DNA of 48,699 nt from Thermoplasmata archaeon (GTDB lineage: Archaea > Thermoplasmatota > Penumbrarchaeia > JAEHCK01 > GCA-020356005). The notes under the pieces are model-generated. The model had not been told where the DNA came from and did no database searches. It was given only the letters and a program-made list of their open reading frames with translations. Numbering within the stretch: the stretch's first letter is position 1; every line of letters starts with the position of its first letter. The DNA is taken from contig CP070629.1 in the NCBI GenBank assembly GCA_020356005.1, positions 1,981,490-2,030,188 on the forward strand, written 5' to 3'. Both the position numbers and the translations under genes were made by a program. Shown here in pieces: positions 1-47,830 of the stretch.

Positions 1-235
1 AGTGAAGAATATTTTTAATAAATATCAATTTAAAAAATAAAAATTACAGCTGCTTAATGAATAGGGTTCTGTAAGCTACCTTCACCCTTCAAGCGAGCGT
101 AGCGAGCGTATTTGGCCTTCACCATTCTCCAAGCGATTTAAAAAAAAAGTGGGGGGGAGGGGGCCCCGGAACATAGGACCTTGCACCTAAATGAGGGTTT
201 TCGCCATTCACTACTATCAAAGGAGTACTTCAGTC
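1..235. repeat. intergenic mosaic repeat, family A right-arm words
   Basis: 79-139 (ccttcacccttcaagcgagcgtagcgagcgtatttggccttcaccattctccaagcgattt) aligns with 8376-8444 with a few indels. A G-rich core gtgggggggagggggcccc lies at 149-167. Confidence 0.65.
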
Positions 236-243
236 ATTAAAAA

Positions 244-522
244 CTATTTCGCGACCCATTCTAATTTTTCAAAATAGTCAGGAGCGGATTTGCGCAGTTC
301 TCTCAACATCATTTTATGGGCCATTTTCGTGCCGTCGGGTCCTATAAATCTTTCCAGGGCGAATTCGATCCTTTTGATCAGTTCCTCGGCTTGTTCGGGA
401 GTTAGATCATATTCTGTGGCTCCCACTTCCTGGAGCTGTTTCTTGATTATACTAGGTAAAATGATCGGGCCTATTGGTTCCAACTTTTGTTGGATATTGT
501 GGATAAATCCCATTGAATCCAT
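244..522 (-). CDS. hypothetical small soluble protein
   Basis: 92-aa ORF with balanced composition and a GAGGAAG SD-like motif upstream. It starts 9 nt downstream of the stop of ORF 532..858 on the same strand. No family recognised. Confidence 0.45.
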   Translation of the reverse strand: MDSMGFIHNIQQKLEPIGPIILPSIIKKQLQEVGATEYDLTPEQAEELIKRIEFALERFIGPDGTKMAHKMMLRELRKSAPDYFEKLEWVAK

Positions 523-531
523 GTCTCTTCC

Positions 532-858
532 TCAGCTCCATAATGTTTTTAATTTTTCCAGGTTTTCTATTGTCTTCTGAAATATAATCAGAAAACAAAG
601 TCCCTCCCCGAATGCTATGGCTGCGCCGGCAGCGTTAAAATACCAGGCGTCGTTTACATTACCAATAAATCTTAATCCGAAACTTGCAAGATAAAGAAAT
701 GAAGCAATTAATAAGAATGTGATGGTGACTTCGATTATGCCCCCGCCTGTAAGTTTCAATGCCTTTCTACCTTTGGTTAATCCCATAAATATTACTATCA
801 AAGCACATATTACTCCCAAGAATTCAAGAATTGTAAGAGTTAAACTAGGAACATCCAT
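532..858 (-). CDS. hypothetical integral membrane protein (about 3-4 TM helices)
   Basis: 108-aa ORF made of long hydrophobic segments (LGVICALIVIFMGL, TITFLLIASFLYLASF, AAIAFGEGLCFLIIF). Confidence 0.45.
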   Translation of the reverse strand: MDVPSLTLTILEFLGVICALIVIFMGLTKGRKALKLTGGGIIEVTITFLLIASFLYLASFGLRFIGNVNDAWYFNAAGAAIAFGEGLCFLIIFQKTIENLEKLKTLWS

Positions 859-927
859 TCAATCACCCACTCATTATAATTATATTACATAATCAAAAAC
901 TAAAACCACATCATAAATTTCCGTTTA

Positions 928-1170
928 TCATTCTTCGTTACTACATTTATCACATATATATCCGTTATTGCTTTCTTCACTGTGAATTGAGCAAATATAA
1001 TTGTTGCAAACACTGCATGATCTGTTGGAATAGATCAGCCCACAAAGATAGCATTTATGAGTCGCTATTTTAGAAAGATTCCCATTATGATTATTTTTAT
1101 CCAATTCAAATTTCATACTTTTCATCTCCTCAAGACTTATCATAGAGTTTAGCATCATCTTCTCTACCAC
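928..1170 (-). CDS. small Cys-rich zinc-finger protein
   Basis: 80 aa with CxxC...CxxC...C...CxxC spacing (HKCYLCG..CSVCNNYIC..YICDKCS). It overlaps the stop of the upstream ORF by 7 nt, which suggests an operon. Confidence 0.5.
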   Translation of the reverse strand: MVEKMMLNSMISLEEMKSMKFELDKNNHNGNLSKIATHKCYLCGLIYSNRSCSVCNNYICSIHSEESNNGYICDKCSNEE

Positions 1171-1811
1171 CTCTTTTTATCTTTTCTAAATAAAAATATT
1201 GCGGCAAATATAATGAGTATTCCTCCGATACCTACTGCAATAAAACTTTCGGTGTTCAAATATACATAGGGTGAGAGCTCGATAAACTGTGTCGAAAAAT
1301 GTTTTATGTGAAACACATAAAAGGCTCCCTTTCCATTAGAATCGTTTGAGGAACTCATACCTTCGTAATTAACAGCCTCGCTGAGATCAAAATTTAAATT
1401 ATTGAAATCGTCGGTTATCAAATCATCTACAAATTCTTTATTTATGAGAATGTTTACATTATTTGTTGAATTTGTATCCTGTGCAGTTATAGATAATGTA
1501 CGTTCATCAGCATCGTACTCGACAGTAACTAAATCGACGCCGCTCCGATCCTTTGCCTTGTTGACCTTTACTACCCAGTGTTTATATTCCTCCACATACA
1601 AAAATGTGGTTTTACCACGGGCTCCTGCATTCTCCACTTTATCTTTTTTTGGTGTGGATGAATCATCACCATTTTCATCATCCTCGTTTTTGTCATCTTG
1701 CTCATCCTCTCCGCTTACAATTCCGATGGAGGTCAATAATAGAAAGATAACAATTATAATTGAAACAATAGACTTTGTCGGTTTCATTTTAATCTTTTTG
1801 ATAGGAGCCAT
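1164..1811 (-). CDS. hypothetical secreted/membrane-anchored acidic protein
   Basis: 215 aa with an N-terminal signal/TM segment (SIVSIIIVIFLLLTSIGIVSG), an acidic D/E-rich linker and a C-terminal TM followed by a basic tail (IGGILIIFAAIFLFRKDKKRW). Confidence 0.55.
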   Translation of the reverse strand: MAPIKKIKMKPTKSIVSIIIVIFLLLTSIGIVSGEDEQDDKNEDDENGDDSSTPKKDKVENAGARGKTTFLYVEEYKHWVVKVNKAKDRSGVDLVTVEYDADERTLSITAQDTNSTNNVNILINKEFVDDLITDDFNNLNFDLSEAVNYEGMSSSNDSNGKGAFYVFHIKHFSTQFIELSPYVYLNTESFIAVGIGGILIIFAAIFLFRKDKKRW

Positions 1812-2229: not shown

Positions 2230-2258
2230 TTTTTTAAATCTATTAAAGAGGATTCTTG

Positions 2259-2777: not shown

Positions 2778-2789
2778 TACGTCGCTTTC

Positions 2790-3175
2790 AGAGTGGTGAG
2801 CACGGTCCCTTCGGGACCTTGAATGGTGAGTGGTGAGTGAAATCTGATTCAATATCGATTACATAAATGGTGAGTACGACTGCTTCGCAGTCTTGTATGG
2901 AAAAGGCATTAAAAGCCTAGGGATTTGGGATTGGGACGGTTGCTACGCAACCTTTGGGGTTTAGGGTTGATTATAATCGATTGAAATTAACCCTAATCCC
3001 TAAAGCGAGCGACCATAGGGAGTACGCGTCCTAATCCCCAATCCCTGATTCTCACCATTCAAGTGAGAGCCCGAAGGGCTCGAGCGTCCTCACCATTCAC
3101 CACTCTTTAAGCAGTATCTCAGCTTACCTCACCATTTAAAAAGCATTACCTCAGCGCTCCTCAGCATTCACTAAT
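2790..3175. repeat. about 320-nt imperfect palindrome, family A (GGTGAG / GGGATT words), plus extra CTCACC/CTCAGC words
   Basis: agagtggtga (2790-2799) pairs with tcaccactct (3097-3106). Nested arms are gggatttgggattgggacg and cgtcctaatccccaatccc. The apex is gggttgattataatcgatt (2964-2982). Confidence 0.8.
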
Positions 3176-3391: not shown

Positions 3392-4819
3392 ATGAGAAAA
3401 TCCATTGGTACTTTAATGGTTCTTGCATTTGTTATTATTGCTTTTGGTTTTGCCCAGCCCGTCTCAGCCCAAATTACAGTGGAATTAATTGATATAGGAA
3501 CCCTGGGTTATAAACACAGCATTGCAAGAGATATGAATAATCTGGGCCATATTGCCGGCATGAGCCCTGTTGCAGAGCATGTTAACCATGTTTTCCTATG
3601 GACCGAAGAGACAGGAATGATGGACCTTGGTACATTGGGAGGCAACTTTGGCGAGGTTTTTGGAATCAATGACCTGGACCAGATAGTGGGATATACCCGC
3701 ATTAGTACAGATCCTTCTATAACTGACTTCCACGCGTTCTTATGGTCCGACGGCGTCATGACCGATCTCGGCACCCTGGGTGGAACGTTATCCATGGCAT
3801 ATGATATAAACAACCTGGGCCAGGTGGTAGGTTACAGTAAAACAGCTGAAGGATATAACCACGCGTTTCTCTATGAGAACGGAGAGATGAAAGACCTGGG
3901 AACCCTCGGTGGAACCAGCAGCTTTGCCAGACGTATTAATGAGGTGGGCCAGATCATCGGCCAGTCAAGAACTGCCTCTGGTGAAGAGCATGCGGTCATG
4001 TGGGAAAATGGGAAGCTAATCGATCTTGGAACTCTTGGACCCGGATGGTATGCACGACCGATAGCGATTAATGAACTCGGCCAGGTCGTAGGTTACTGCG
4101 TTGACTCTTCAAACCAGATTATACAGCATGCTACGTTGTGGGATTATCCCAGGGCAATCGATCTTGGAACCCTGGGAGGTATGTTTAGTAGTGCATTCGA
4201 CATCAATAACCTCGGTCAAATCGTTGGTGGCAGCCATACTGAAGACTACAAGATTCATCCAGTTCTATGGGAAGGAAAAGATATGATAGACCTGGGGGTA
4301 ATTTCGGGGCCAAGCGGAACTGCCCGTTTCATAAACGATAAGGGAGTCATCGCCGGAGATTATTTGACTGATACAGGCGAAGGCCGCAATTTCATATGGA
4401 CCGAACAGTACGGCAACATCGAGCTTCCGAATATTGGTGGTACCAGAAGTTGGGTATATGATTTGAATGAAAATAATCAAATTCTGGGATATGCACAAAC
4501 AGCCACGTTGGAATCTCATGCTATACAATGGACTTTAACCATACCCCAACCGGAAGACCCGGTAAGTTCAATCAGAGAAGAAATTGATGAGATCATCAGT
4601 ACCGGTGATCTTGGTGCAAACGAGGCAAATGCTTTCAACGGACCGCTAACAGGAGCTGAACATCAAATAGAGAAGGATAATACAGCAGCAGCAATAAATG
4701 GATTCAATGCTTTCATAAACCAGGTAGAGGCATTCAACAAAGCCGGTAAAATCTCAAACGAGGATGCGGCTACATTGATCGGTATGGCAAATGAGGCTAT
4801 TGCTGCACTCGGTGGTTAA
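3392..4819 (+). CDS. secreted HAF-family extracellular repeat protein with helical C-terminal domain
   Basis: Signal peptide (LMVLAFVIIAFGFAQPVSAQ). About 8 repeats of DLGTLGG..(x)..INNLGQVVGyS....HAFLW. C-terminal helical segment (EHQIEKDNTAAAINGFNAFINQVEAF..ISNEDAATLI) looks FIMAH-like. Perfect GGAGGTGA SD upstream. Confidence 0.75.
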   Translation: MRKSIGTLMVLAFVIIAFGFAQPVSAQITVELIDIGTLGYKHSIARDMNNLGHIAGMSPVAEHVNHVFLWTEETGMMDLGTLGGNFGEVFGINDLDQIVGYTRISTDPSITDFHAFLWSDGVMTDLGTLGGTLSMAYDINNLGQVVGYSKTAEGYNHAFLYENGEMKDLGTLGGTSSFARRINEVGQIIGQSRTASGEEHAVMWENGKLIDLGTLGPGWYARPIAINELGQVVGYCVDSSNQIIQHATLWDYPRAIDLGTLGGMFSSAFDINNLGQIVGGSHTEDYKIHPVLWEGKDMIDLGVISGPSGTARFINDKGVIAGDYLTDTGEGRNFIWTEQYGNIELPNIGGTRSWVYDLNENNQILGYAQTATLESHAIQWTLTIPQPEDPVSSIREEIDEIISTGDLGANEANAFNGPLTGAEHQIEKDNTAAAINGFNAFINQVEAFNKAGKISNEDAATLIGMANEAIAALGG

Positions 4820-4832: not shown

Positions 4833-4865
4833 GGGAGAGGTTTTGCCTCTCCTTAATTTTTTTTC
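4833..4865 (+). terminator. hairpin plus T-tract terminator candidate
   Basis: gggagagg-ttttg-cctctcc followed by ttaatttttttt, 14 nt after the stop codon of the HAF gene. Confidence 0.5.
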
Positions 4866-4869
4866 ATTT

Positions 4870-5160
4870 CATTATCGCTTAAAGAATGGTGAGGACGGCT
4901 GCTTCGCAGCCTTGAGCATTGAGCTATGAGCACGACCGCTTCGCGATCTTGTGCAAAAAAAGCTGAGAAAGCGATATATTCAGGCACTAGAGAATAGAGA
5001 TGAGGCGCTAGGGTGATTACAATCGATTAAAATCCCCAGGCCCGAGACCCGATGCCCCAGCCCCGAATATGTTTATTGCTCAAGCGAGCGAAGCTCGCGT
5101 GCTCAACGCTCAAGCGAATGAACGAAGTGAGTGAGCGTGCTCAATGCTTTCAAAGCATTA
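4870..5160. repeat. intergenic palindromic element (GAGCA/TGCTC words, family A module at its 5' end)
   Basis: Left arm is aatggtgaggacggctgcttcgcagccttgagcattgagctatgagcacg. Right arm is cgtgctcaacgctcaagcg..cgtgctcaatgctt. Apex is gggtgattacaatcgatt (5011-5028). Confidence 0.7.
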
Positions 5161-5662: not shown

Positions 5663-5771
5663 AACTCACACCTGGAATTGATTTATATTGATATTTGTTG
5701 ATATCATATAGATTAAATATAATTTTCGAATGCTATCTTGACGATTAACAACAAAACTTTTTTGATTTTTG

Positions 5772-6402
5772 TTGCTTAGTAATACTACCAATACTACAAA
5801 ATCCAAATACTACAAAATTTACCTTTTAATGAATAGTTTCGGTGATCTCCTATTGTTAATTTTAATAAATATAGAATCATTATCATTTCAGGTTTGGGTG
5901 ATATAATGAAAACTGAACCAAAAAAGAAAAAGATTTACAATATTAGAGATAGAGTATTTCAATTCAGTCAAAGGATCTTGGAAATATCGGAATTACTACC
6001 TAATTCTAAAGCATGCGATGTTCTTAGAACTCAATTATTGAAATCAGGTACAGCGATAGGATCTAATTTAGAAGAAATCGATGGGACAATAACGAAACGA
6101 GATTTTTTAAACAAAGTTGTCATTGCCAGAAAGGAAGCAAAAGAGACACTCTACTGGCTACGATTAATCAAAGGAAAATATTTTGACGAAGAAATCATCA
6201 AGGATGATTTGGATGAACTTAATGAGATAACTCTTATACTGAGCGCAATAATAAACAAAACTAGAAAGAAAAATCCATCTTTGTAGTATTTGTCATTTGG
6301 ATTTCCACCGAAGGGGCTGGGGTGGGGCTTTGTAGTATTTGTAGTATTTGGCTTTCCTTTGTAGTATTTGTAGTATTTGAAGTATTTGATTTTACTAAGC
6401 AA
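5772..6402. mobile_element. inverted-repeat-bounded cassette carrying a four-helix-bundle ORF (IVS/MITE-like, no transposase)
   Basis: Terminal 11-mers ttgcttagtaa (5772-5782) and ttactaagcaa (6392-6402) are exact reverse complements. Inside them are arms of tactacaaa / tttgtagta word repeats. The ORF stop codon TAG lies inside the first tttgtagtatttg word. Confidence 0.45.
5906..6286 (+). CDS. four-helix-bundle protein (23S rRNA intervening-sequence protein / Avd-like family)
   Basis: Matches the family signature as I recall it: F.F...I......LP......L..QLLKSGTAIGSNLEE.......DF..K..IARKEAKETLYWLRL. Start placed at ATG 5906; the ORF track starts at TTG 5894. Confidence 0.85.
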   Translation: MKTEPKKKKIYNIRDRVFQFSQRILEISELLPNSKACDVLRTQLLKSGTAIGSNLEEIDGTITKRDFLNKVVIARKEAKETLYWLRLIKGKYFDEEIIKDDLDELNEITLILSAIINKTRKKNPSL

Positions 6403-6430
6403 TTTCAAATCCAAATAAATCGGCTTTTAA

Positions 6431-8053: not shown

Positions 8054-8103
8054 CGCTGGTGCTCTTTTTATATTTTTCCATAAATATGATTATATATCGA
8101 TTC

Positions 8104-8540
8104 CATAAATGGTGAGTACGGCAGCTAAATCTGCCTAGAATGGTGAGTGGTGAGTGAAATCTGATTAAATAATGATAATATAAATGGTGAGTACGGCAGC
8201 TAAAGCTGCCTGGAATGGAAAAGGCATTAAAAGCCTGGGGATTAGGGATTGGGACGGTTGCTACGCAACCTTTGGGGATTCGGGTTGATTTTAATCAATT
8301 GAAATTAACCCCAATCCCTAAAGCGAACGACCGCAGGGAGTGAGCGTCCGAATCCCCAATCCCTATTATAATCTGCCTTCACCATTCAAGTGAGGGAGCG
8401 TAGCGATCGAACGTATTTTGCCTTCACCATTCTACCAGCGATTTATATGCTTCTCTTACCATTCAAGCGAAGGAGCGAAGCTCGCGTGCTCATCATTCAA
8501 GCGAGAGCCCGGAGGGCGGAAGCGTGCTCTAATATCATTA
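8104..8540. repeat. family A palindromic element, second full copy with internal direct duplication
   Basis: 8181-8364 aligns with 2876-3058. In a 128-nt sub-block I hand-counted about 90% identity. The ataaatggtgagtacg+hairpin module is duplicated at 8106-8144 and 8181-8219. Confidence 0.8.
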
Positions 8541-9936: not shown

Positions 9937-10092
9937 TCCGAGAGCGCTTGAAATCGATGTTAAGCTGAACACTCTGTGAGCGCTTCTTATTAATGTAGAA
10001 TCAGAGCGCTCCGTGAGTGTTTACAATCAATGAAAAAACAGAACACTCTGTAGCGTTTCAAATAGAAATTAAATCGAAGCGTTCCGATTTTA
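9937..10092. repeat. family B element (CACTC..GAGCG words in both orientations)
   Basis: gaacactctgtgagcgcttc and gaacactctgtagcgtttc in one orientation, and cagagcgctccgtgagtgtttac in the inverse orientation. Confidence 0.65.
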
Positions 10093-10412: not shown

Positions 10413-10440
10413 AGCTTTTTAATCGATTAGTAACGATTAT

Positions 10441-10566
10441 AGAAGTGCGGCCTACGTTGGACGGTTGCGAGGTGCGTACCGTAATGCGGCTAACGTTAAA
10501 CGGCCGATAAACGTCTGACGCTAGACGTTACGCGCTTCGCAACCCCAAACCGTCAGACGCACTTCT
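10441..10566. repeat. family C 126-nt hairpin element (ACGTTAGACG-type words)
   Basis: Terminal agaagtgcg / cgcacttct, apex cggccg at 10501-10506, and imperfectly complementary arms. Second copy at 47609-47735. Confidence 0.8.
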
Positions 10567-10694
10567 GGAATCATTTACTAAGCTCTAATAAATCGTTAAA
10601 AATCTATTGATTATACTTATATATTGCATTTAGCTAACTATATATATTCTCAATTCTGATTACATTCAAAACAACAAGGGCCAAGGCAAACTAC

Positions 10695-12437: not shown

Positions 12438-12461
12438 AATCAATTAAATCAGGTTCTAGGT

Positions 12462-13466
12462 TCATGGTTCAAGGTTCTGGGTTTCGGGTTCGGGGTTTGA
12501 CTCTATCGTTTTTAATTCTGATAAAATTAATTCCTTCAGCTTGTCGATGCCCTCTCCCTTCATTGCAGAGATCTTCAGCCTCTCCGAATCTAGAACCTTC
12601 AAATCACTTTTATTCTCCACTTCAATCATTGCCAGCTTTGGAAAATAATTTTTCAACCGCTCCGAAAGACCCAGCTGTACCTCCAGCGGATATCCGCAGT
12701 ACTCCGAAGGGTCCAGCACAAACACCATCAGGTTCGCAAGATGTTCCAGGGCCATAACCGCCTGGCGCTCAATATTTTTCTTCTCGGAGGGGTCGCTGTC
12801 AAGAAGTCCCGGAGTATCGATAACCTGGTATTTTACCCATTCAACTTCGATGTGTCCCACCAGAACCTGCTTGGTGGTGAACGGGTATGCAGCGATTTCG
12901 GGCCTGGCGGAGGATAACCGTTCCACCAGCATCGATTTGCCGACATTGGGATAACCTGCAATTACAACGGTGGGCACCTCGGGGTCGATATCAGGCATTT
13001 TTCGAAGCGTCTCACGGGCGGTGTTAAGCAGCAGCAGTTCGGAATTGATCTGTTTCAAAACCGATGCGACGCGGCCGTACGCTGCATTTCGATGTTTCTG
13101 GATTTCATTTATGTTATCCTCCGTTTTGATTCGACGGATATTGGCTGTGCACACCCCGGCGATCTTCCGCCGGCCCCAATCCATAGCACCCAGGGCCTTC
13201 TTCAATCTATCGTTGCCCACGAGCACATCCACAAGCTGGTTATAGAAGGGATGGAGATTATCAATGCTTGGGAAACCCTTAGTGTATTTTTTCAATTTTT
13301 CCGTCAGCACATCCTGTATGATCTGCAGTTTCGCGATTGCAAATGCGCGTTCGCGGGTAAGCTTCGAGCCGGCCCCACCAGGCTTGGATTTCTTGGCCGC
13401 GCGGTGGAACGCGAGCTCCGTTAGCTCGTCTGCGGTCATTACCCCGGGTATCTTAAAAACGGTCAT
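12462..13466 (-). CDS. Nog1-type GTP-binding protein (COG1084)
   Basis: Helical NOG1 N-terminal domain followed by G1 GYPNVGKS, G3 DTPG and G4 NKSD. 334 aa. Confidence 0.85.
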   Translation of the reverse strand: MTVFKIPGVMTADELTELAFHRAAKKSKPGGAGSKLTRERAFAIAKLQIIQDVLTEKLKKYTKGFPSIDNLHPFYNQLVDVLVGNDRLKKALGAMDWGRRKIAGVCTANIRRIKTEDNINEIQKHRNAAYGRVASVLKQINSELLLLNTARETLRKMPDIDPEVPTVVIAGYPNVGKSMLVERLSSARPEIAAYPFTTKQVLVGHIEVEWVKYQVIDTPGLLDSDPSEKKNIERQAVMALEHLANLMVFVLDPSEYCGYPLEVQLGLSERLKNYFPKLAMIEVENKSDLKVLDSERLKISAMKGEGIDKLKELILSELKTIESNPEPETQNLEP

Positions 13467-13546: not shown

Positions 13547-13755
13547 CTAAATACTGCCAAAACCAAATATTACAAAATCCAAAGTAAGTCCAAACTCCCA
13601 AATTCAAAAGCAAATCCCAATGTCAAAATTCAAAGTAAATCCTAAATCCAAAGAGGATTTTCCGCCGCTTTTGATCTTTGGATTTCCTTTGGTAGTTATT
13701 TGATGTTTGAGCTTACTTTGTAGTATTTGTAGTATTTGTAATATTTGGATTTAAG
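13547..13755. repeat. family E palindromic element (TACTACAAA / TTTGTAGTA words), ORF-less
   Basis: ccaaatattacaaaatccaaagtaag (13563-13588) pairs with cttactttgtagtatttgtagtatttgtaatatttgg (13712-13748). Apex pair is aaatccaaag...ctttggattt. Confidence 0.7.
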
Positions 13756-14469: not shown

Positions 14470-14690
14470 AATTCTAAATTCTAAGTACTAAATACTAAAC
14501 AAATTCTAAGCACTAAGCACTAAACAAATCCGAAGCACAAATGACGAAAGCCCAAACAAATTAGAATATCGAATATCCCAGGCAAAAAATAAAACCGAAG
14601 GGGGCGGGGCCTTGGTAGTATTTGGATTTTGTAGTATTCCTTGGTAGTATTGGTAGTATTTGAGACTTGGTAGTATTAAGAATCAAAATA
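14470..14690. repeat. family E-like palindromic element, ORF-less
   Basis: The left arm has ctaagtactaaatactaaac / ctaagcactaagcactaaac heptamers. The right arm has ggtagtatttggattttgtagtatt..ggtagtattggtagtatttg. The core ccgaagggggcggggcc resembles 6309-6327. Confidence 0.6.
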
Positions 14691-14697
14691 AAAGCTA

Positions 14698-15021
14698 CTA
14701 TCTGTACATCATCTCATCAGAATTCTGGTCGCCAACGCGCTTGTACTTACGCTTCTTCTCCTTTACATGCTTTAATGCCTTCTTCTGAGTCTCCTTGTGG
14801 CCTATGAACTGGAAGTCCAGGCGGTTCAAACGGATGTAGGTCTTATCCGGTAGTTCATCAAAAGAAATAAAGCCCCGTGAAGCCAACCCCTTGAGCACCC
14901 GCACCAATTTTTTCTCCGAGATACCCAGTTTATCTCTAAGCTCATCGGTTGTTATGGGATAGGTTTTGAGCAATACTTTAATCACTCGCGCTTCAAGGCT
15001 TCCCGATTCGATCTCTATCAT
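14698..15021 (-). CDS. small winged-helix DNA-binding protein
   Basis: ITTDELRDKLGISEKKLVRVLKGLASRGFISF (HTH plus wing), followed by a basic C-terminal tail. Confidence 0.55.
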   Translation of the reverse strand: MIEIESGSLEARVIKVLLKTYPITTDELRDKLGISEKKLVRVLKGLASRGFISFDELPDKTYIRLNRLDFQFIGHKETQKKALKHVKEKKRKYKRVGDQNSDEMMYR

Positions 15022-16974: not shown

Positions 16975-16984
16975 ACAGACAAAT

Positions 16985-17004
16985 TCTTTTATTATTTTTT
17001 CTTT
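16985..17004 (+). terminator. oligo-T terminator candidate
   Basis: tcttttattattttttcttt starts 11 nt after the stop at 16974. Archaeal terminators are typically T-tracts. Confidence 0.3.
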
Positions 17005-35077: not shown

Positions 35078-35081
35078 AAGA

Positions 35082-36347: not shown

Positions 36348-36386
36348 GTCTGGTATATTATATGGAAGTAGAATGTATAAATAAAG

Positions 36387-37374: not shown

Positions 37375-37790
37375 ATCGGAGCGTTTTGATTTTATATTGA
37401 TTTTTATCACTCACAGAGCGTTAAGCTTAGTCATTGATTATAAGCACTCACGGAGCACTTCAATGGTATAACGATTGAAAGCGTTCTCGGTAAGGATGCA
37501 TATATACAAGAAGATGAGAAATGCAGCATGCGGCAGGCAGCAAGTTTAATTAAAAATAGGGATTAGGGATTTGGACGGTTGCTACGCAACCTTTGGGGAT
37601 TAGGGTGATTTTACAAGGACTCATGACCCAGGACCCAGGACCCAGGGTCTTGCTCTTACATTCTTCCACTTTTACACAATTCTACTCTTTAACTTGTCCT
37701 GAGAGCGCTTCAAATCGAAATCCAAGCAGAGCGCTCTGAATGGCTCTTATAATTAATATATAGAAAAACGCTCCAATAGTCCATCGATAG
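37375..37790. repeat. composite spacer joining family B, a family A half-copy and family D (AGGACCC heptamers)
   Basis: agcgttttgattttatattgat sits just after the stop codon. gggattagggatttggacggttgctacgcaacctttggggattagggtgatttta is a family A left arm only. It is followed by tgacccaggacccaggacccagggtc, then family B words again. Confidence 0.7.
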
Positions 37791-38084
37791 GTTTATATAA
37801 CCGTAGTCACTAATACAAGATAATACCACCGTAAAGTATATAATACGAAAAATATTACTCTTATATTCCTAGAATTAAATAGACATTATTATATATAATT
37901 CATAGTAAGGTGTGAATATATAGAACTGGATGAATTGACTGAATACAAGGAAATAATAAATAAGTAACAAGGGGGCAAGTAAGGAGAGCAGCTGATTTTT
38001 CCCTATAATGATTAATCCCTTGCATCTTAAATGAGGTTCGAGACCATAGAGCTGTTTTACAGAAGCGGAAAGGAGAACTTGAAA

Positions 38085-41000: not shown

Positions 41001-44000
41001 GGCGACCCGAACTCGGGCGGTTTCCGAATCGGATTCAATACCACAATCGAGCCAGTAGAGGCCAACGGAGGCACGGTGAATGCCCAGATAGAATGGACGC
41101 CGCTGACCACCGGCACGCACCGCATATTTATTTTAATCGATCCTGACGGGCTTGTACAGGAGGCAAAGACCAGCAACAACATCGCGAATGTTTCCATTGA
41201 TGTCATTCCCAAGCCCAATTTGTATGTTGAAACCAGCGACATACAATTCTCGGCGAACCCCATCATGGAGGGCGAGCCGCTGAACATTCAGGTCCTCATA
41301 CATAATGACGGCGAGGTTAACGTTGGGTCTGTTACCATCAGGGTGACGCTGGACTCACTGGACAGCACCGCAATTGTTCCGGATATACAAATCGTAAGCG
41401 TCCCTGCAAACGGTTATTTCAATTTGCCGATAACATGGCCTTCGGCGGAACCCAACGGAACGCACAGCATTTATATCTGGATAGACCCGAACAACAAAAT
41501 CCCGGAGTCCAACAAGTTCGATAATTACGCATCCAAAACCCTTATAATAACGAAGACGATTGACCTCCGCATTACTGCTGATGATATTTATTTTAATGAT
41601 GCTTCGAACTCCACCGATATCGAATATGGCAAAGAGCTGAAAATAACCGCCAGGGTATGGAACGACGGCGGTTCACCTACAATCTCCGAGTTCATCGTGC
41701 AGTTTTATCTTATAACCAACGAAGGTGAGACGCAGCTGGGCTCAGACCAAACCGTGCCGACCATTCAGCCCGCCGGCTATGCCGACGTAAATTTAACATG
41801 GATCGCAAATCTCAGCGGCACGCACACGATCCAGGTGCTTGTGGACCCCTCGGGACTGGTTTTGGATTCCAACCGCGTCAATAACAAGGCGAGCAAGGAC
41901 TTCAAGGTAAACGATCCGCCCGACTTTGCGGTCACAGTGGAAGCTGCATTGTTTTCCACTGGTGCCACTGTGAAAGCCGGTGAGGCCATCACCATAACCG
42001 CAATGGTGCAGAACCGCGGTGATACCGGCTGGGGGCCGGTGGAGGTGATGTTCCACGACGGCGATCCCACAGATACGATAAACCCGTCCAAGCAAATAGG
42101 TACAACAAAACTCATAGAGTATCTTCAACCGCACGGTCAGCAGGAGATCAATACCAGCTGGACGGCCGAAGTCGAGGGTGAGCATCAAATATATGTCAGT
42201 GTAGATTTTAAAGAGAAGGTCCCTGATTCGGACAGGAGAAACAATCTGGATTTCGGTATAATAGAAGTGCTGACGCACGCACCGGATCTTAATCTAACGA
42301 AAATCGAGTACAGTCCCACATCAGTAACCGAAGGCGATCTGGTTTACATCAATATAACCATCCAGAACATCGGTAATATAGATGCCACCTCGGTGGTTAT
42401 CGGTTTATACAAGGACGATTATAAAAATGATAATTATATGATAGACCAGTTCGCCATGGGTAATATTTCGGTTGGTGAATCGGTAATATATAATTATGAA
42501 TGGACCGGAGCGGTTGCAGAGGGGCATTACGAGCTTTACATTGTCCTGGACCCGTTCAATACGATCAAGGAGTTCAATGAGCGTAATAATGTCAACGAGG
42601 ACAATCCCATAGAGATCGGAGTGGAAGGAGCGCAAAAGTGGCCGGATCTTAAGTTCGAAGATACCGAAAGCTGGATTATAATATCACCCTCAAAACCGCG
42701 GGTGGACGAATTAGTAGTTTTCTCAATTTACATAATCAATGTGGGCGATGTGCTCATACGAGATGTTATCGTGGTTTTGAAAAACGGCGACGAGGAGCTC
42801 GCCAGGTCGGAAATACTGGAGACTCTGGATAAACAGGAAACTGAAATCATGGAGATAACCTGGGTACCTGACAAAAAAGGAACCTTTACACTTACATTCG
42901 AGATAATCACATCGAACAATATCGAAGAAATCACAGATGAAAATAATATTAAGGATTACACGGTGAATGTGGCCGAATCAGAAGATGATAGTGATGACGT
43001 AAGCTCGCTGTTCGGCGCTGCAATCGCCACTGTTGTAATGATTGTGATTTTGGTTGTTATCGTTTTGCTGTTGATCGGCAGCAAGCGGAGAATAACGGAG
43101 TGGGCAGAATGCAGTGAATGCATGGAAAAAATGCCGCTTGAAGCATCCATATGCCCAAGCTGCGGTGCAGAATTTTCTGATGAGATGGAGTGCGGTGAAT
43201 GCCACAGCCTCATATCCGTTGAAGATACACGCTGTCCCAACTGCGGCGCTGCATTTATAGAGGATATGGAGGGGAGGAAGAAGTCGTTTCTGGGTATCGG
43301 TGAAGGACGCGTCGAGGAAGCCCCGGAGACCGCTGATCTGAGCGGCCCGGCGCCTATCGAAACCATAGATGAGGATACTATCCAGGACGCAGAAGAGATA
43401 GAGGAAGATATGCTTGATGTGGATTATGATGAGCCGGTAGTACCGCCGGCCCCGCCTGTACCGAAGGAGAAGCCCAAGAAAGTAAAGAAGGAGAAGGAAG
43501 AGGAAGAGCTGGAGAAAAAGGAGAAAGAGGAGGAAGAAGAGGAAGAGGAGAAAGAGAAGAAGGAGGAGAAGGAGGAGAAGGAGAAAGAGGAGGAAGAAGA
43601 AGAGGAGGGAGAAATCGAGCTTGACGACGAGGAATTCCAGGAATTCGAAAAGGCGCTTGACGAAGAGGAAATCGAAGAGCTCGAGGAGGCTCCCGGGGCA
43701 GGATTGGAAGCCGAGGCAGGAGATGAGGGCAGGAAGAAAGAGAAGAAAAAGAAGCTGAAGAAGCACAAGAAGGGCCGGCCGGCGGATAAGGGCGCAAAAA
43801 AGGAAGAGAAGAAGCCGTCAGAAGTAAAAGAGGCGGTGGAGAAGAAGGAACCGGAAAAGAAGGACGAAAAGGAAAAGGAGAAAGAGGAAGAGAAGAAGGA
43901 GGAAGAGGAAGAGAAGGATGATTTTGTCATTCCGGATGCGAAGTGGACCGCCGAATGCTATAAATGCAATGCAAGAATCCCCTTATCGGCTTCAAAATGT

Positions 44001-44027
44001 CCCGAGTGCGGCGCAGAGTTTGAGTGA
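38085..44027 (+). CDS. giant type-I membrane surface protein GA2 (paralog of GA1): beta-helix-like repeats, 8 CARDB-like domains, TM, cytoplasmic E/K-rich tail with three zinc ribbons
   Basis: Same architecture and order as GA1. AAGGAG lies 8 nt before ATG 38085; the longest ORF starts at 38031. Signal/anchor is LITVFVISLLFVSL. TM is AAIATVVMIVILVVIVLLLIG. Ribbons are CSECM..CPSCG, CGECH..CPNCG and terminal CYKCN..CPECG. Confidence 0.85.
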   Translation: MVKFRGRKIGEISQRLITVFVISLLFVSLTEFIGFEPVEGEVKEDSYGNLLIDGGSVHEINMGGGTYQMQGNITVTGAGSTLLIRNTTMKFLKGAGFKYHIDVKDGALLQIKNSEITVDLTAGGSEERVDFFITNSDFIMENSSIKLPGEFHASSSNITFNYSLLSKNPSGGSVTHSLVLNFTDCNVLMVEHMIYNFKSGEDIYLRGTTNFSAIKSELNLTSSNTLQLHDNATAKLYSISVTSKTSNSVISIQSSYAYAEIFRLLTLDVTDVTEVPVGGALVTPRNYSNKKMAPLPAEEILTYLDRTIGNYNITDYLGRVILPLRSDNITDIGIEYTGNYLLDVELSSYSVEGGYSLKPFPNFYNIYNNPYHALSFGSQIPPELNGHYSKALPPLTITKPVTFNSPLQLQQNLIIDGGTLTVTGTDLEMNQSATNRFYILLKNGGKLNLIKSKLSDPGNWPLNVYTMDSSEIMVRTSTLNLGSGILSLRNGSKLEMNASSMVGSINSIGPGNTILIEEDSSVASKNMVLVKSDVTLKDVSITTVGSIRTEQLQFTVKNTTFNKPLTFKSDSKAYLTNVTFSGVPSPTITIKDTSEVHVNWWLTVRVVDGGKNLLEKATVHLYNYSLSGDKLHYGDSETDASGLALFEVYSEMRNASGSYKGIERNYYLNATYRSAKSNSLGTPPLTANKLMELEFDLAADLKLADIDVVGNLFAGNNLMINATVTNVGDFDLNTTEIAIRFEINGIALGTDEKLDRLSVDESAVVNKNWVASLGTHIINVTVDPSDKIGEKNESNNKLTTIETISVSGPDLGLSTTDIEFDPGVPTKGTNLTVTAKITNYGGYDPADNGDPITVKFYLNDPALIGTQIGETQTVDSIPPTTSRTVQINYTIPMEGNYNIFVVVETPFDSSLANNKVNRTLIIYTLPDLYISNTDITFTSTSDFIVESPVFIRAVLRNIGGTAVDNVGVAFYDGDPNSGGFRIGFNTTIEPVEANGGTVNAQIEWTPLTTGTHRIFILIDPDGLVQEAKTSNNIANVSIDVIPKPNLYVETSDIQFSANPIMEGEPLNIQVLIHNDGEVNVGSVTIRVTLDSLDSTAIVPDIQIVSVPANGYFNLPITWPSAEPNGTHSIYIWIDPNNKIPESNKFDNYASKTLIITKTIDLRITADDIYFNDASNSTDIEYGKELKITARVWNDGGSPTISEFIVQFYLITNEGETQLGSDQTVPTIQPAGYADVNLTWIANLSGTHTIQVLVDPSGLVLDSNRVNNKASKDFKVNDPPDFAVTVEAALFSTGATVKAGEAITITAMVQNRGDTGWGPVEVMFHDGDPTDTINPSKQIGTTKLIEYLQPHGQQEINTSWTAEVEGEHQIYVSVDFKEKVPDSDRRNNLDFGIIEVLTHAPDLNLTKIEYSPTSVTEGDLVYINITIQNIGNIDATSVVIGLYKDDYKNDNYMIDQFAMGNISVGESVIYNYEWTGAVAEGHYELYIVLDPFNTIKEFNERNNVNEDNPIEIGVEGAQKWPDLKFEDTESWIIISPSKPRVDELVVFSIYIINVGDVLIRDVIVVLKNGDEELARSEILETLDKQETEIMEITWVPDKKGTFTLTFEIITSNNIEEITDENNIKDYTVNVAESEDDSDDVSSLFGAAIATVVMIVILVVIVLLLIGSKRRITEWAECSECMEKMPLEASICPSCGAEFSDEMECGECHSLISVEDTRCPNCGAAFIEDMEGRKKSFLGIGEGRVEEAPETADLSGPAPIETIDEDTIQDAEEIEEDMLDVDYDEPVVPPAPPVPKEKPKKVKKEKEEEELEKKEKEEEEEEEEKEKKEEKEEKEKEEEEEEEGEIELDDEEFQEFEKALDEEEIEELEEAPGAGLEAEAGDEGRKKEKKKKLKKHKKGRPADKGAKKEEKKPSEVKEAVEKKEPEKKDEKEKEKEEEKKEEEEEKDDFVIPDAKWTAECYKCNARIPLSASKCPECGAEFE
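40176..42969 (+). other. array of 8 CARDB-like domains within GA2
   Basis: Units start at AADLKLAD, GPDLGLST, LPDLYISN, KPNLYVET, TIDLRITA, PPDFAVTV, APDLNLTK and WPDLKFED. Confidence 0.75.
43008..44024 (+). other. GA2 TM helix plus cytoplasmic zinc-ribbon / E-K-rich tail
   Basis: TM at 43008-43079 followed by SKRR. Two ribbons follow immediately, then an E/K low-complexity tract, then the terminal ribbon. Confidence 0.75.
43461..43920 (+). repeat. near-homopurine GAA/GAG/AAG low-complexity tract encoding the E/K-rich tail
   Basis: About 460 nt dominated by A/G on the plus strand, e.g. gaggaagaagaggaagaggagaaagagaagaaggaggagaagg. Confidence 0.8.
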
Positions 44028-44110
44028 AGAGAAAGCGTTTTGATTTTATATCGATGTAATCAGGACCCAGGACCCGGGATCCAGGACTCAGGGTGATTTT
44101 AATCTGGTCA
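44028..44110. repeat. post-stop module plus family D heptamers plus shared core
   Basis: agcgttttgattttatatcgat matches 37389-37410, then taatcaggacccaggacccgggatccaggactcagggtgattttaatc. Confidence 0.75.
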
Positions 44111-44775: not shown

Positions 44776-44814
44776 CTATAAGATTATTTTAATTATTGAA
44801 AGCTGTAAAAGCTT

Positions 44815-45160
44815 TCAGGTTGCGTTATGCGGTTGCAGTGGCGAGGGGCGTAACGTTGGGCGTCTAACGTTTAGCGGCTTTTAATTCTAATACATTATCC
44901 AATACGAGTTTCAATACATTTTTACACGACGAACGTCGCTACCGCTTGACGTAACGCATATCGCAACCGCTGAAGAGATTGCCGGCGTTGACTAGTTGCC
45001 CACACCGACCAGAAAAAAATGATTTCGAGGTGTAGGGCCGTGCAGAATAAAACAGTATATTGTCATTAGGATATACTTGTCAACGCTCGGCGGTGCCGTT
45101 ATATCAATGTAAATTTAAGTCGGTACGCACCTCGCAACCACTCAACGTTTACCGCTTTTC
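44815..45160. repeat. family C-derived large inverted structure
   Basis: ggttgcagtggcgaggggcgtaacgttgggcgtctaacgtttagcggc lies on the left. cggtacgcacctcgcaacc (45121-45139) is the exact reverse complement of the 19-mer at 10463-10481 and 47631-47649. Confidence 0.7.
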
Positions 45161-45186
45161 TATAAGCAATCTGAAATCATTTATTC

Positions 45187-45226: not shown

Positions 45227-45946
45227 ATGGATTATACAGCCTATGGTGAGCCGGTTATGGTGAAGCTGTTGAAGACCTACATACGCGGTTTTGACGAGGA
45301 GATCGGAGGGGGGATACCCCTGGGCCATGTGGTGCTGGTAACAGGCAGCCCGGGCACGATGAAATCCACGCTGGCGTACAATATCTTGTATAATGCAGTA
45401 AAACGCGATAAAATGAGCTCGTTGTACATATCGCTTGAGCAGAGCAGCCGGTCGCTGCTGTTCCAGATGGTTCGATGCGGTATGAAGGAAACCTTCGGCG
45501 ACGATCTGCTTATTGTTGACCTGGCCAAGATCCGCAAGCAGCTGGACGAAGCCCGTGATAAACCGTGGCTGGAGATACTTCGCAAGCACATCCAGTATAT
45601 CATAGCCAAGAACCGCTATCAGATAATAGTCATCGATTCTCTGCCCGTACTTGAGATACTGACCAGGATGGAAAATAAGCGCACACAGTTCTTCCATTTC
45701 TTCGAGTGGCTGCGTGACCTGAAGCTCACCTCGTTCATAATCACCGAGATCTCTGACGATCCCACTATTCTGCGGGACGAGGAGTTTTTAGCGGACGGCG
45801 TGATATATCTTTCCATGAAGCAGGTGGGCGAGATAGATATCCACCGCCGTATCAGGTGCATCAAGATGAGGGGAATGGACCATTCCACCAGCCAGTTCAC
45901 ACTGGAGTTTAAAAAGAACGAATTTAGAGTGACGAGGGCAATATAA
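45227..45946 (+). CDS. single-domain KaiC/RecA-superfamily ATPase (ArlH/KaiC-like) with atypical Walker A
   Basis: GFDEEIGGGIPLGHVVLVTGSPGTMKSTLA. Walker A reads GSPGTMKS (45344-45367), with M where the conserved G of GK[ST] sits. Also YISLEQS, Walker B QIIVIDSL, and a C-terminal RRIRCIKMRG. 239 aa. Confidence 0.8.
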   Translation: MDYTAYGEPVMVKLLKTYIRGFDEEIGGGIPLGHVVLVTGSPGTMKSTLAYNILYNAVKRDKMSSLYISLEQSSRSLLFQMVRCGMKETFGDDLLIVDLAKIRKQLDEARDKPWLEILRKHIQYIIAKNRYQIIVIDSLPVLEILTRMENKRTQFFHFFEWLRDLKLTSFIITEISDDPTILRDEEFLADGVIYLSMKQVGEIDIHRRIRCIKMRGMDHSTSQFTLEFKKNEFRVTRAI

Positions 45947-46330
45947 TCAGGACCCAGGACCCAGGACTCAGGGGTGATTTTAATCTGAGAGATTACCTAT
46001 TCGGTTTTGGCAAGGGGAAATTTTTGGCCACGAAGGGCACGAAAGACACGAAAATAATCTAGGGTTTTGATTAAAAACGTCTTGATTTCTAACGTCCCCC
46101 CACCCCTTATTAACCGCGGAACCGCAGAAGCGCGGAACGAAACGAGGTTCGATTCTGTGCCTCGTAACGAACATCGAATCCGAATACCGTAACGAGCCTC
46201 GATACCGTTAGACGTAACGCTAGACGCGACCGCTAATCGTAACGAGTCTCGCAACCGCCAAACGTGTTCCGCTCTTCTTGTAGCAATATATAATCACCCT
46301 AGCGCCTATTCTCTAGCGCCTAATCTAATC
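45944..46330. repeat. composite spacer: family D plus core, family C words, and an inverted copy of the 4983-5020 module
   Basis: taatcaggacccaggacccaggactcaggggtgattttaatc resembles 44058-44104. ccgttagacgtaacgctagacgcgaccgc is family C. aatcaccctagcgcctattctctagcgcc resembles the reverse complement of ggcactagagaatagagatgaggcgctagggtgatt. Confidence 0.7.
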
Positions 46331-46390
46331 TAAATTAAATTGTTACACTTGTTGCAGCTGTACACAATTACGATTGTAGTATTGAGCACT

Positions 46391-46828
46391 TTACGCATAT
46401 TTCTGGCAGGTATAGCAGTACCATTTCTGGTATTGCTGTACAAAAGTCAAAGGCCCGTTGCAGCTCTTGCATGTCTGGCCGCCCTGAGGCGGCGGTGGTG
46501 CTGGCGCACCGGCTCCGCCCATCAGCCGGCCGTCAAGAGCGGCGAAGTATTTATTGAGGGTCTCATCGGTTTTACCGAAAGAAGTCATTGCTCCCTCTGC
46601 TTTCACCTTTACCTTAACAAGAGTTCCGCCCTGAGGAGCCTGGCTTACCTGGATTTTGATCTTTTCGCCCATCATGGTCCTCACATCTGATTTCCCCTTA
46701 CCCTTGATCTCTCCGGTCTGGGGATTGGCGGATTTCAATTTCCCCCTGGAATCCACAATGGCGTTCTGGGCCGCCTGAAATACTACATCATATTGCTGCG
46801 GATAAACTCGTTCCCCTTTTGCAGACAT
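46391..46828 (-). CDS. hypothetical protein with C-terminal zinc ribbon
   Basis: 145 aa with a beta-rich N-domain, a P/G linker (GAGAPAPPPPQGG) and CKSCNGPL...WYCYTCQKY at the C-terminus. Confidence 0.55.
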   Translation of the reverse strand: MSAKGERVYPQQYDVVFQAAQNAIVDSRGKLKSANPQTGEIKGKGKSDVRTMMGEKIKIQVSQAPQGGTLVKVKVKAEGAMTSFGKTDETLNKYFAALDGRLMGGAGAPAPPPPQGGQTCKSCNGPLTFVQQYQKWYCYTCQKYA

Positions 46829-46930
46829 TTATATCCCGGCACACTAAATATAATTCTTCATGCATAAATCTATCGGTGGATATAGGACGTAATACTAATA
46901 TGTGATAACGATATTCAGGGATTGATTACG

Positions 46931-47572
46931 ATGAAGAAGGATATGAAGGGCATTATTTTGATGGTAATCGGTTTGAATATAGCAGCTTATGGAGGATCGA
47001 TAGTTATACCTATTTTGATGATGCCTTCCGATGTTAGTGAAATAGCCTATGGTGGATTTGGTACTTTGTTCTTTTTAGGAGGACTTGCCGGTTCAATTAT
47101 AGGGTTGGTAATGTTCTTTATGGGATGGAAATTATATTCAGAAGCAAGTTTAGAATCCAAGGCCAGGAAAGGTGAATACTGGCAGCCGCCGTTGAGTTCA
47201 CATCAACCTGTGATCGTCCAGAGCTATCGAGAGGAGGAGGCCGGGTATCCAAGAACCGACGTGCGAAAAACAGAGCCTGTTCGCAAAACGGTGCCCACGG
47301 CGGAGGTTGTGGAAGAACAAAAGCCGAAGGTTGAGAAAAAAGCCGAACCAAAGGTACCGCAAAAATCCAGAGGTGCAATGATACGCGAGTACGAAGCGAT
47401 TTTCAATATAAGCGAGGATCGCGCCAGGAATCTTTACGACAGCGGATATACAACGGCCAGGGCACTTGCACTGGCCGAGCTGTCAGATCTATTGAAGGTG
47501 GAGGGCATCAATCCGACTATTGCTAAAAAGATTAAAAGAACAGCCAGGATATTGGAGAGGATCAGGGATTGA
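46931..47572 (+). CDS. membrane protein with C-terminal helix-hairpin-helix domain
   Basis: Three hydrophobic helices, a charged linker, then LAELSDLLKVEGINPTIAKKIK (HhH-like). ATG 46931 chosen; the track starts at TTG 46922. Confidence 0.55.
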   Translation: MKKDMKGIILMVIGLNIAAYGGSIVIPILMMPSDVSEIAYGGFGTLFFLGGLAGSIIGLVMFFMGWKLYSEASLESKARKGEYWQPPLSSHQPVIVQSYREEEAGYPRTDVRKTEPVRKTVPTAEVVEEQKPKVEKKAEPKVPQKSRGAMIREYEAIFNISEDRARNLYDSGYTTARALALAELSDLLKVEGINPTIAKKIKRTARILERIRD

Positions 47573-47608
47573 TGAGAAAAGATTTCAATAAGCTTTTAAA
47601 TCGTTTAT

Positions 47609-47830
47609 AGAAGTGCGGAAAACGGTGTGCGGTTGCGAGGTGCGTACCGTTAAGCGTCTAACGGTTAGCGGCCGAAAAACGTCTAACGCTAGACGTTACG
47701 CACTGCGCTACCGCCCAACGTTAGACATACCTCTGGAATCGATTATTAAGCTTAAAAAAAAGAAAAAAAATCAGGGACTGGGTCCAGGATCCTAAGTTCT
47801 TGGTCCTGGGTGTCCGCCCCTGATTAACTT
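47609..47830. repeat. second copy of the family C hairpin followed by a family D-like palindrome
   Basis: 47609-47735 aligns with 10441-10572 at about 80% by my hand count (25 mismatches in 132). Then cagggactgggtccaggatcctaagttcttggtcctgggtgtcc. Confidence 0.8.

Follow-up and report, generated by a model that had tools for sequence, protein, structure and literature searches.

Self-complementary repeat elements built from tandem words in the spacers of a Thermoplasmata genome region, and a four-helix-bundle gene cassette among them

The DNA analysed here, referred to as the window, is a stretch of 48,699 nt from contig CP070629.1 of a Thermoplasmata archaeon (GCA_020356005.1), and its subject of interest is the repeated DNA between its genes. 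Several families of self-complementary repeat elements, which we divide into five (A to E), are dispersed in the spacers. Family C provides the outer inverted repeats of a small gene cassette, which is made up of a word array, a TIGR02436/PF05635 four-helix-bundle gene and a complementary array. The same design is found in other archaea and in bacteria, and in one bacterium it is made of the window's own words. We hypothesise that non-autonomous selfish palindromic repeats, resembling short tandemly repeated repetitive (STRR) sequences, repetitive extragenic palindromic (REP) sequences and MITEs (miniature inverted-repeat transposable elements), have colonised the spacers, and that family C arose from a four-helix-bundle cassette like the intervening sequences (IVS) of 23S rRNA genes. 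We put the probability of this explanation at about 0.6.

The elements are recognised by comparing the window with itself. In blastn, 2770-3170 matches 8085-8499 (77% over 419 nt, E 2e-79), 10434-10602 matches 47602-47769 (79%, E 8e-34), 44068-44106 matches 45948-45987 (92%), and 37549-37613 matches both 2908-2975 and 8226-8293 (88-90%). Further matches link 6307-6455 to 14594-14725 and, in inverted orientation, 9978-10088 to 37375-37486. Tandem Repeats Finder (TRF) located period-7 arrays of 2.1-4.6 copies at nine spacer sites, including 2820, 8141, 14469, 14506, 37557, 37616, 44061 and 45948, and period-9 arrays of TTTGTAGTA at 5781, 6329, 13717 and 14641. The elements are 120-450 nt in size and their arrays are short, with 2-6 units. 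Fragments, half elements and nested arrangements all occur.

The words are far commoner between genes than within them, in agreement with the tandem-word construction described in the initial annotation. Per kb, the enrichment of spacer over coding DNA is 55-fold for TAGTATTTG, 30-fold for GTAGTATT, 18-fold for AGGACCC, 11-fold for GGTGAGT and 5-fold for GGGATTW, and CACCATTC is found eight times in spacers and never in coding DNA. Composition does not account for these numbers: TTTGTAGTATTTG, with up to two mismatches, has 19 matches where shuffled sequences give 1.7, and the family A unit TCACCATTCAAGYGAG, with up to three, has six copies in 48.7 kb where shuffles give 0.7. ACGTTAGACG has a single exact occurrence. 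GGTTCWW, listed earlier among the spacer words, has to be removed, being commoner in coding DNA (ratio 0.2) and having as its sole array 12451-12497, which runs into a gene.

Pairing was assessed with RNAfold, as z scores against dinucleotide shuffles. Long inverted repeats had been proposed for at least 14 spacers, and nine of these intervals fold far below the shuffles, with z of -10.9 (2790-3175), -9.3 (8104-8540), -8.1 (10441-10566), -6.6 (13547-13755), -5.4 (47609-47830), -4.9 (4870-5160), -3.8 (5772-6402), -3.5 (9937-10092) and -3.4 (37375-37790). Three others, 1-235, 14470-14690 and 44028-44110, contain family words and no self-complementarity (z about 0), and for 44815-45160 and 45944-46330 the fold is marginal, with z of -1.9. 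The 14 intervals amount to 4146 nt, or 8.5% of the window, very close to the original estimate of about 4 kb or 8%.

When spacers are defined by 31 hand-picked genes of the window, they total 6885 nt (14% of the window), and the 14 intervals, less the gene enclosed in one of them, take up about 54% of this. Families A-E are present in 14 of 18 spacers that are 100 nt or longer. The four element-free spacers are 1812-1959 and the three AT-rich ones within the giant-gene block that the initial annotation called the supercluster (15875-16263, 16975-17256 and 22810-23129), where the reported absence holds: there are no family words, and z is +0.65, +1.0 and -1.4 respectively. The chance that all three would fall among the four empty spacers is 4/816, about 0.005, by a post hoc hand calculation. 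In one of these spacers, blast and a sliding fold hinted at an inverted repeat of AT-rich sequence (16965-17099), which was ruled out by its z of -0.63 against shuffles. TRF and a repeat finder detected in the window no array of the CRISPR type, with identical direct repeats and regular unique spacers, and a CRISPR reading of the elements is therefore rejected. In viral contigs, the family C words had no match and the family B pattern had one chance match, in a GC-rich contig.

One of the elements is the family C cassette (Table 1). Its interval, 5772-6402, had been taken for pure spacer, and the 126-aa gene that it encloses at 5906-6286 was overlooked. The terminal inverted repeat (TIR) is followed by a left array of AATACTAC(A/C)AA and ATCCAAA words, an AT-rich promoter-like stretch of about 90 nt, the open reading frame (ORF) and a right array of TTTGTAGTATT. 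In the minimum-free-energy fold a 46-bp stem closes around the ORF, with 5771-5822 pairing with 6335-6403 through the words TTTGTAGTA/GGATTT, and the duplex energy of the arms is -45.4 kcal/mol. The predicted product matches Pfam PF05635 (E 2.8e-15), TIGR02436 (E 3.7e-20) and PDB 2RLD (E 5.6e-17). A homologue in a relative (L023) is 81% identical, and the nearest named homologues, from Omnitrophota, are 56-64% identical. The cassette stands between the TruD and Sm_multidrug_ex genes and not in an rRNA gene. For each of the 31 genes, the 200 nt upstream were aligned to the reverse complement of the 200 nt downstream, and the score was compared with shuffles. The cassette gene shows by far the strongest flank complementarity (z 6.6); the sole other outlier is PdxT (13829-14440, z 4.1), because it is flanked by two family C elements.

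These two elements, 13547-13755 and 14470-14690, have no ORF. Both carry the right-end module of the cassette, including the CCGAAGGGG..GGGG segment that lies 3' of the ORF; in 14470-14690 this segment and TTGGTAGTA nonamers form the right side, and the heptamers AAATACT and CTAAGCA the left. They are best read as probable deletion derivatives of the cassette, to which they would be related as MITEs are to insertion sequences. In L023 a cassette with the same ends and TIR lies between unrelated flanks and has a left array 58 nt longer, so the arrays vary in length. In a second relative (L021), the orthologous spacer between TruD and Sm_multidrug_ex is 290 nt long, and contains a different small palindrome and no cassette. 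A reading of the cassette as part of a diversity-generating retroelement (DGR) was rejected, since no reverse transcriptase domain is found in the window genes.

Complementary word arrays flank the four-helix-bundle gene at 11 of the 12 homologous loci that were scored by this same comparison of 200-nt flanks, the sole failure being Anabaena cylindrica; L038 and L039, which were read by eye, have the same complementary arms. The words differ from locus to locus. They are GTCGGAG in Nostoc punctiforme, AATTCAA in N. flagelliforme, AAGTAAA in Nostoc TCL26-01, TTAGTGA (12 copies) in Bernardetia and TGGTCAC (seven copies) in Euhalothece. Complementarity is thus kept while the sequence differs, which favours a constraint on pairing over a sequence-specific reader. 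A tblastn search of the PLSDB plasmids returned 15 records (12 Nostocales, one Chroococcales and two Bacteroidota), and in Nostoc plasmids the TIGR02436 genes lie within heptamer palindromes, as in the window. The arrangement of a gene inside a word palindrome is found in six groups, namely the lineage of the window, other archaea, Omnitrophota, Nostocales, Chroococcales and Bacteroidota. That family C is common to bacteria had escaped the initial annotation, and the parallel that it drew with STRR and MITE sequences turns out to be closer than claimed, extending to the word GGGATT[GT] and to the Nostoc plasmid genes.

Shared words are seen in an Omnitrophota contig (L024, GCA_028715335.1), in which AATACTACCAAATCC... 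and ...GGATTTATTTGGTAGTATT, words of the window itself, stand on either side of the gene, among neighbours with SPOR, IPPT/MiaA-type and HflX-type GTPase domains. The two other spacers of this contig (1856-1996 and 2915-3034) are occupied by ORF-less palindromes of AATACTACC/AAATCC words, so that the saturation pattern of the window is repeated in a bacterium. The words common to the window and Omnitrophota imply horizontal spread.

Judged from its neighbours, the four-helix-bundle gene appears to have been inserted into operons repeatedly. It lies between ccmA and ccmB in an archaeal metagenome-assembled genome (MAG; L028), between the genes of the large and small aconitase subunits in L029, and between hdrD-like and hdrA-like genes in L039. 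In pANACY.01 of Anabaena cylindrica (L036) and a plasmid of Nostoc sp. TCL26-01 (L037) it separates cas2 from cas1, and a further operon site is between an RND adaptor and its permease. It is worth adding that the called ORF extends upstream through the left word array in L028 (4001-4072), L029 (4001-4079) and L039 (2501-2575), giving for example MKNRNFKYYQIPSKSQSPNPNEEK...; the conserved protein begins after the array, and these extensions are therefore probably annotation artefacts.

Word palindromes similar in style are present in relatives whose TruD is 68-74% identical, and one of these relatives (L020, 5085-5230) has a homologue of family B at a different genomic site. Exact-pattern scans for the cores of families A and B gave no match in collections of genome and metagenome contigs; these do not include the present lineage, and the L020 contig with its family B copy was not recovered from them either. 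The contigs of the relatives (L020-L023 and L038) are 3-6 kb long and L038 ends inside the right word array, which suggests that short-read assemblies of this lineage are probably broken up by the repeats. In loci of more distant Thermoplasmata and of other archaea (L001-L019), about 250 kb in all, none of the family hallmarks occurs.

The remaining families are A, B, D and E (Table 1). Family A is a hierarchical hairpin. In the full copy A1, outer GGTGAGT/TCACCAT words are followed by mini-hairpins, whose loops are TTC on the left arm and GAA on the right, then by inner GGGATT[TG]/AATCCC[CT] words and the GATTATAATCGATTGAAATTAAC apex, the conserved form of which is GATT(A/T)TAATC(G/A)ATTGAAATTAAC. 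The second copy, A2, has four tandem REP-like units on its right side (8370-8530). It retains 120 of the 141 base pairs of A1, seven of the 120 through changes on both sides, and five of these seven are in two mini-hairpins. Fragments of family A are seen at 72-140, 4868-4914 (matching 2848-2895), 5086-5142 (matching 8473-8529) and 37549-37613. Family B has a CGGCCG centre, AAGCTT..AATCGATT borders and a GGTTGCGAGGTGCGTA / TACGC..CGCAACC stem. Family E consists of CAGGACC/AGGACCC arrays, which are one-sided at 44061 and 45948, palindromic at 47770-47830, and chimeric with an A arm at 37549-37646. In this last case the A left arm (37549-37613) runs into AGGACCC heptamers (37616-37646), and the mosaic that had been described at 37559-37614 is thus real. 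The composite at 45944-46330 contains in addition B-like CGTAACG/CGCAACC words and a 14-mer doublet, and folds better on the minus strand.

The apex GGGTGATTTTAATC is reached from both A words and E words, and the family B stem GGTTGCG/CGCAACC recurs as a mini-hairpin of the A core, GGTTGC-TAC-GCAACC, the 7-mer being found 11 times in spacers and twice in coding DNA. Modules are therefore common to several families, as was expected from the earlier suggestion that they recombine. CGTC is present in the family B words and GTAG in every family C word, neither of them positioned at a stem end.

Table 1. Repeat elements of the window and the gene enclosed by the family C cassette (a dot marks features given without strand; z scores are from RNAfold).
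Feature	Position	Strand	Description
Family C cassette	5773..6402	+	11-nt TIR TTGCTTAGTAA...TTACTAAGCAA; arrays around four-helix-bundle gene
Four-helix-bundle gene, 126 aa	5906..6286	+	PF05635 23S_rRNA_IVP / TIGR02436, Avd-like
Family C ORF-less hairpin	13547..13755	.	Divergent spacer; z -6.6; self-inverted over 194 nt; right end aligns with cassette right end
Family C-related ORF-less element	14470..14690	.	z -0.14; 6307-6455 matches 14594-14725; no significant self-complementarity
Family A full copy A1	2778..3175	.	Long imperfect hairpin; z -10.9 and -11.7; 77% identical to 8085-8499
Family A full copy A2	8085..8540	.	Between divergent rpoL-like and DUF63 genes; z -9.3
Family A right-arm units only	72..140	.	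79% identical to 8369-8445; 1-235 z +0.47
Family A-like element	4870..5160	.	Convergent spacer; z -4.9; C-rich array 5034-5066 inside
Family B palindrome	10413..10602	.	z -7.2 to -8.1; 79% identical to 47602-47769
Family B second full copy	47578..47769	.	Convergent spacer; self-blastn match to 10434-10602
Family B split copy	44793..45185	.	Arms 44793-44884 and 45121-45185, about 240 nt of other small palindromes between; z -1.9
Composite element	45944..46330	.	CAGGACC array and half apex (45948-45987), then CACGAAAGA nonamers; plus strand z -1.9
Family D	9937..10092	.	REPIN-like AACACTC..GAGCGCT units in alternating orientation; z -3.5; inverted match to 37375-37486
Mosaic element	37375..37790	.	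D arms 37375-37486 and 37690-37790 around A left arm and AGGACCC heptamers; z -3.4
Family E one-sided array	44061..44106	+	CAGGACC heptamers ending in GGGTGATTTTAATC half apex; not a palindrome, z +0.17
Family E short palindrome	47770..47830	.	GGGACTGGGTCCAGGATCC / GGTCCTGGGTGTCC; local hairpin seen in fold
GGTTC(W)(R) heptamer array	12451..12497	-	Crosses stop of NOG1-like GTPase gene; outside the spacer families

Selfish MITE-like DNA was one of several functions proposed in the initial annotation, and is the best supported of them. We infer that the elements are mobile, and that copies would insert where the DNA tolerates them, that is in spacers, sparing AT-rich promoter zones of 50-240 nt. 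Word arrays would lengthen and shorten through slippage, and elements landing within or beside each other would give rise to mosaics. Complementarity of the arms would be maintained by the action of the element as a hairpin, be it in single-stranded DNA or in RNA, the hairpin of the cassette being the stem that closes around the ORF. The mobilising enzyme would be encoded outside the window, the cassette would spread horizontally, also between domains, and effects on neighbouring genes, for example as hairpins in a 3' untranslated region (UTR), would be secondary.

Several points weigh against this explanation. No transposase, REP-associated tyrosine transposase (RAYT), integrase or reverse transcriptase is found among the 31 window genes, and neither in the window nor in L023 are the ends of family C flanked by a direct repeat that would mark a target-site duplication. 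The evidence for presence and absence consists of one orthologous spacer, in a relative (L021) at 68% TruD identity, and the copy numbers of the families are those of the 48.7-kb window. Of the 14 intervals, three to five do not form hairpins. Finally, pairing that is kept with compensatory changes is equally compatible with a selected RNA function.

The elements could accordingly be selected RNA structures, acting as 3'-UTR hairpins in termination, exonuclease blocking or processing. Their folds are very stable, compensatory changes preserve the pairing, and family A folds better on the plus strand, with more G-U pairs. The claim that the elements immediately follow stop codons is true in part, in that nine of the 14 begin within about 50 nt of one; downstream of the gene at 2256-2777, no oligo-T tract is met before 3227, past the element, which would therefore be in the 3' UTR. 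However, elements are found in tandem, convergent and divergent spacers, and two large copies, 8104-8540 and 13547-13755, have genes transcribed divergently on their two sides. Between elements and start codons, 50-240 nt of AT-rich DNA are left free. Oligo-T tracts, the archaeal termination signal, occur before, inside or after the elements without pattern; 10441-10566 lies beyond a T5 tract. Only one site seen beside an element resembles a classical terminator, a GC hairpin (GGAGAGG..CCTCTCC) with T8 at 4836-4864; it directly follows the stop of 3392-4819, so that the element 4870-5160 lies beyond it. The elements are symmetrical, and most fold about equally on both strands. Taken together, the mixed spacer types, the lack of pattern in the oligo-T tracts and the folding of both strands make terminators or position-dependent RNA signals unlikely, and the terminator or insulator hairpins suggested earlier do not hold as a general role. 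Unrelated genes adjoin members of one family, half elements and fragments are common, a relative has a different palindrome in the orthologous spacer, and Rfam gives no match. We therefore consider selected RNA structure improbable as the explanation of the elements, though it is the most serious of the alternatives.

Alternatively, the word arrays might be binding-site arrays for a protein (the four-helix-bundle protein or a chromatin protein), or form G-quadruplexes (G4) or i-motifs, and so organise or insulate their neighbours. Tandem words of fixed period would suit cooperative binding, Avd, which binds nucleic acids as an accessory protein of DGRs, belongs to the protein family (PMC10053308), (GGGATTG)3GGG forms a G4 in vitro (PMC4692102), and the family A core has four or five G-tracts. 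Set against this, homologous cassettes differ wholly in their words yet keep the complementarity, which points to pairing, and the window has one four-helix-bundle gene for five word families. Its elements contain one canonical G4/i-motif candidate (5034-5058) and two with long loops, and with only these three candidates G-quadruplexes were rejected as a general explanation. We regard a role as binding arrays as quite unlikely. Even less credible, and barely worth entertaining, is the idea that the palindromes are recombination sites like the attC sites of integrons, with the intervening genes as cassettes. Imperfect palindromes of 60-150 nt do follow many ORFs, and the four-helix-bundle gene does turn up inside operons as a cassette might, but there is no integrase in the window, the genes beside the palindromes have housekeeping functions and differ in orientation (TruD, RpoL, PdxT, NOG1-like GTPase), and the palindrome of the cassette encloses its ORF instead of following it. 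By eye, and with no attC model run, no RYYYAAC...GTTRRRY ends were seen.

Selfish word-built repeats thus remain our preferred explanation, and they bear on two puzzles. Heptamer repeats of the STRR type have been known in cyanobacteria for more than 30 years, without an origin or mechanism, and free-standing genes annotated by NCBI as "four helix bundle protein" in many genomes have no known role. The window joins the two by a concrete and testable link. More speculatively, and we think this rather unlikely, TIGR02436 genes with complementary arrays might form an unrecognised class of mobile cassette without a transposase that crosses the bacterial-archaeal boundary, and the spacers of cyanobacteria, Omnitrophota, Bacteroidota and the present archaeal lineage might owe the STRR-type heptamer palindromes that fill them to its ORF-less derivatives; the protein might aid the copying or protection of the hairpin. 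The cassette is a likely case of transfer of a small element between domains. There is also a practical side, as such repeats break short-read assemblies and can be mis-called as N-terminal extensions of genes. Literature searches, the coverage of which was incomplete, found no archaeal precedent for the word-palindrome type, no published link of four-helix-bundle genes with heptamer repeats, and no report of the words themselves; as far as these searches reach, the type appears to be undescribed in archaea.

The gene content of the window is archaeal and includes TruD, an RpoL-like subunit, a NOG1-like GTPase, DUF63, PdxT, DUF835, a KaiC-like ATPase, and clustered genes for giant CARDB proteins whose N-termini are of the archaeal type IV pilin kind. 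The nearest named TruD proteins (48-51% identical) belong to Thermoplasmata / Methanomassiliicoccales MAGs. An Rfam scan of the window gave no match and no rRNA, and a tRNA scan was also empty. The gene of the NOG1-like GTPase (12462-13466, minus strand) is the one entered by the GGTTC(W)(R) array: its last residues (...SNPEPETQNLEP, then the stop) are encoded by 12451-12497, and here a word array has therefore become, or extended, a protein C-terminus.

Some features of the window lie outside the repeat families. The giant neighbours 23130-28970 (1946 aa) and 29021-35077 (2018 aa) are paralogues, with about 60% nucleotide identity over 3 kb, and both have archaeal type IV pilin N-termini and CARDB domains. 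They are followed by two DUF7289 pilin-like genes (35055-37370), and the group as a whole resembles a locus for a giant pilin or adhesin. A further giant gene, 38031-44027, contains a purine-rich tract of GAGGAA/GAAGAA repeats at 43486-43918 (GC skew +0.53 and AT skew +0.65 in a 500-nt bin), which encodes an acidic, lysine-rich low-complexity segment directly preceding a C-terminal zinc ribbon. At the left end of the window, a homopolymer-rich tract at 138-166 (A9 GT G7 A G5 C4) adjoins the family A fragment. The block 244-2777 is low in GC (32-37%) and consists of small ORFs without family matches and a helix-turn-helix regulator; the repeat families are absent from its spacers, and it may therefore be a recent acquisition.

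The closest known systems include the heptamer repeats of bacteria. Nostoc/Anabaena PCC 7120 has tandem GGGGA(T/C)T heptamers and Xanthomonas has inverted pairs of GGGAATC (PMC4692102). As in cyanobacterial STRR sequences, the words of the window are tandem, 7 nt long and mostly intergenic, with several word families in one genome, and GGGATT[GT] matches the GGGGATT/GGGATTG repeat of Nostoc/Anabaena (PMC4692102). As in Xanthomonas, the arrays often form convergent pairs capable of making a stem-loop (PMC4692102). Unlike STRR sequences, which were originally defined in cyanobacteria, they have an archaeal host; they are short, are nearly always paired with a complementary array, include words of 9-10 nt, and are joined with mini-hairpins and apex modules into elements of 120-450 nt.

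The cassette itself resembles the IVS of 23S rRNA genes in Coxiella burnetii and Leptospira, with a size of about 430-630 nt and a long TIR stem whose loop contains a PF05635 ORF, and these IVS are regarded as selfish and horizontally acquired; that of C. burnetii, with its S23p ORF in the loop of a terminal-inverted-repeat stem, has been called a "selfish genetic element" (PMC4990558). The same four-helix-bundle family includes Avd, the accessory protein of DGRs (PMC10053308). Unlike these IVS, the window cassette is free-standing between protein-coding genes and not in helix 25 or 45, its stem is made of tandem words, its host is archaeal, and ORF-less derivatives accompany it. RNase III, which cleaves the IVS, is to our knowledge usually absent in archaea.

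With REP sequences, bacterial interspersed mosaic elements (BIMEs) and REP doublets forming hairpins (REPINs), the elements have in common short imperfect extragenic palindromic units, alternating clusters and mosaics (PMC3733652, PMC3116915), and of the tetranucleotides GTAG and CGTC the first is again found in words of family C and the second in those of family B. They differ in that the position of GTAG and CGTC relative to the stems departs from the REP layout, in the lack of a RAYT in the window, and in being much longer and hierarchical, with units built from tandem words. Generic REP-like hairpins and MITEs have been reported in archaea (PMC12306157, PMC10969869). In contrast to MITEs, the gene-bearing version of family C encodes a four-helix-bundle TIGR02436 protein, not a transposase, and the target-site duplication is missing. 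In other respects the resemblance to MITEs is close (PMC10969869): the elements are small, non-coding, palindromic, bounded by TIRs and confined to spacers, and in family C a longer version with the same ends and a gene is found alongside them.

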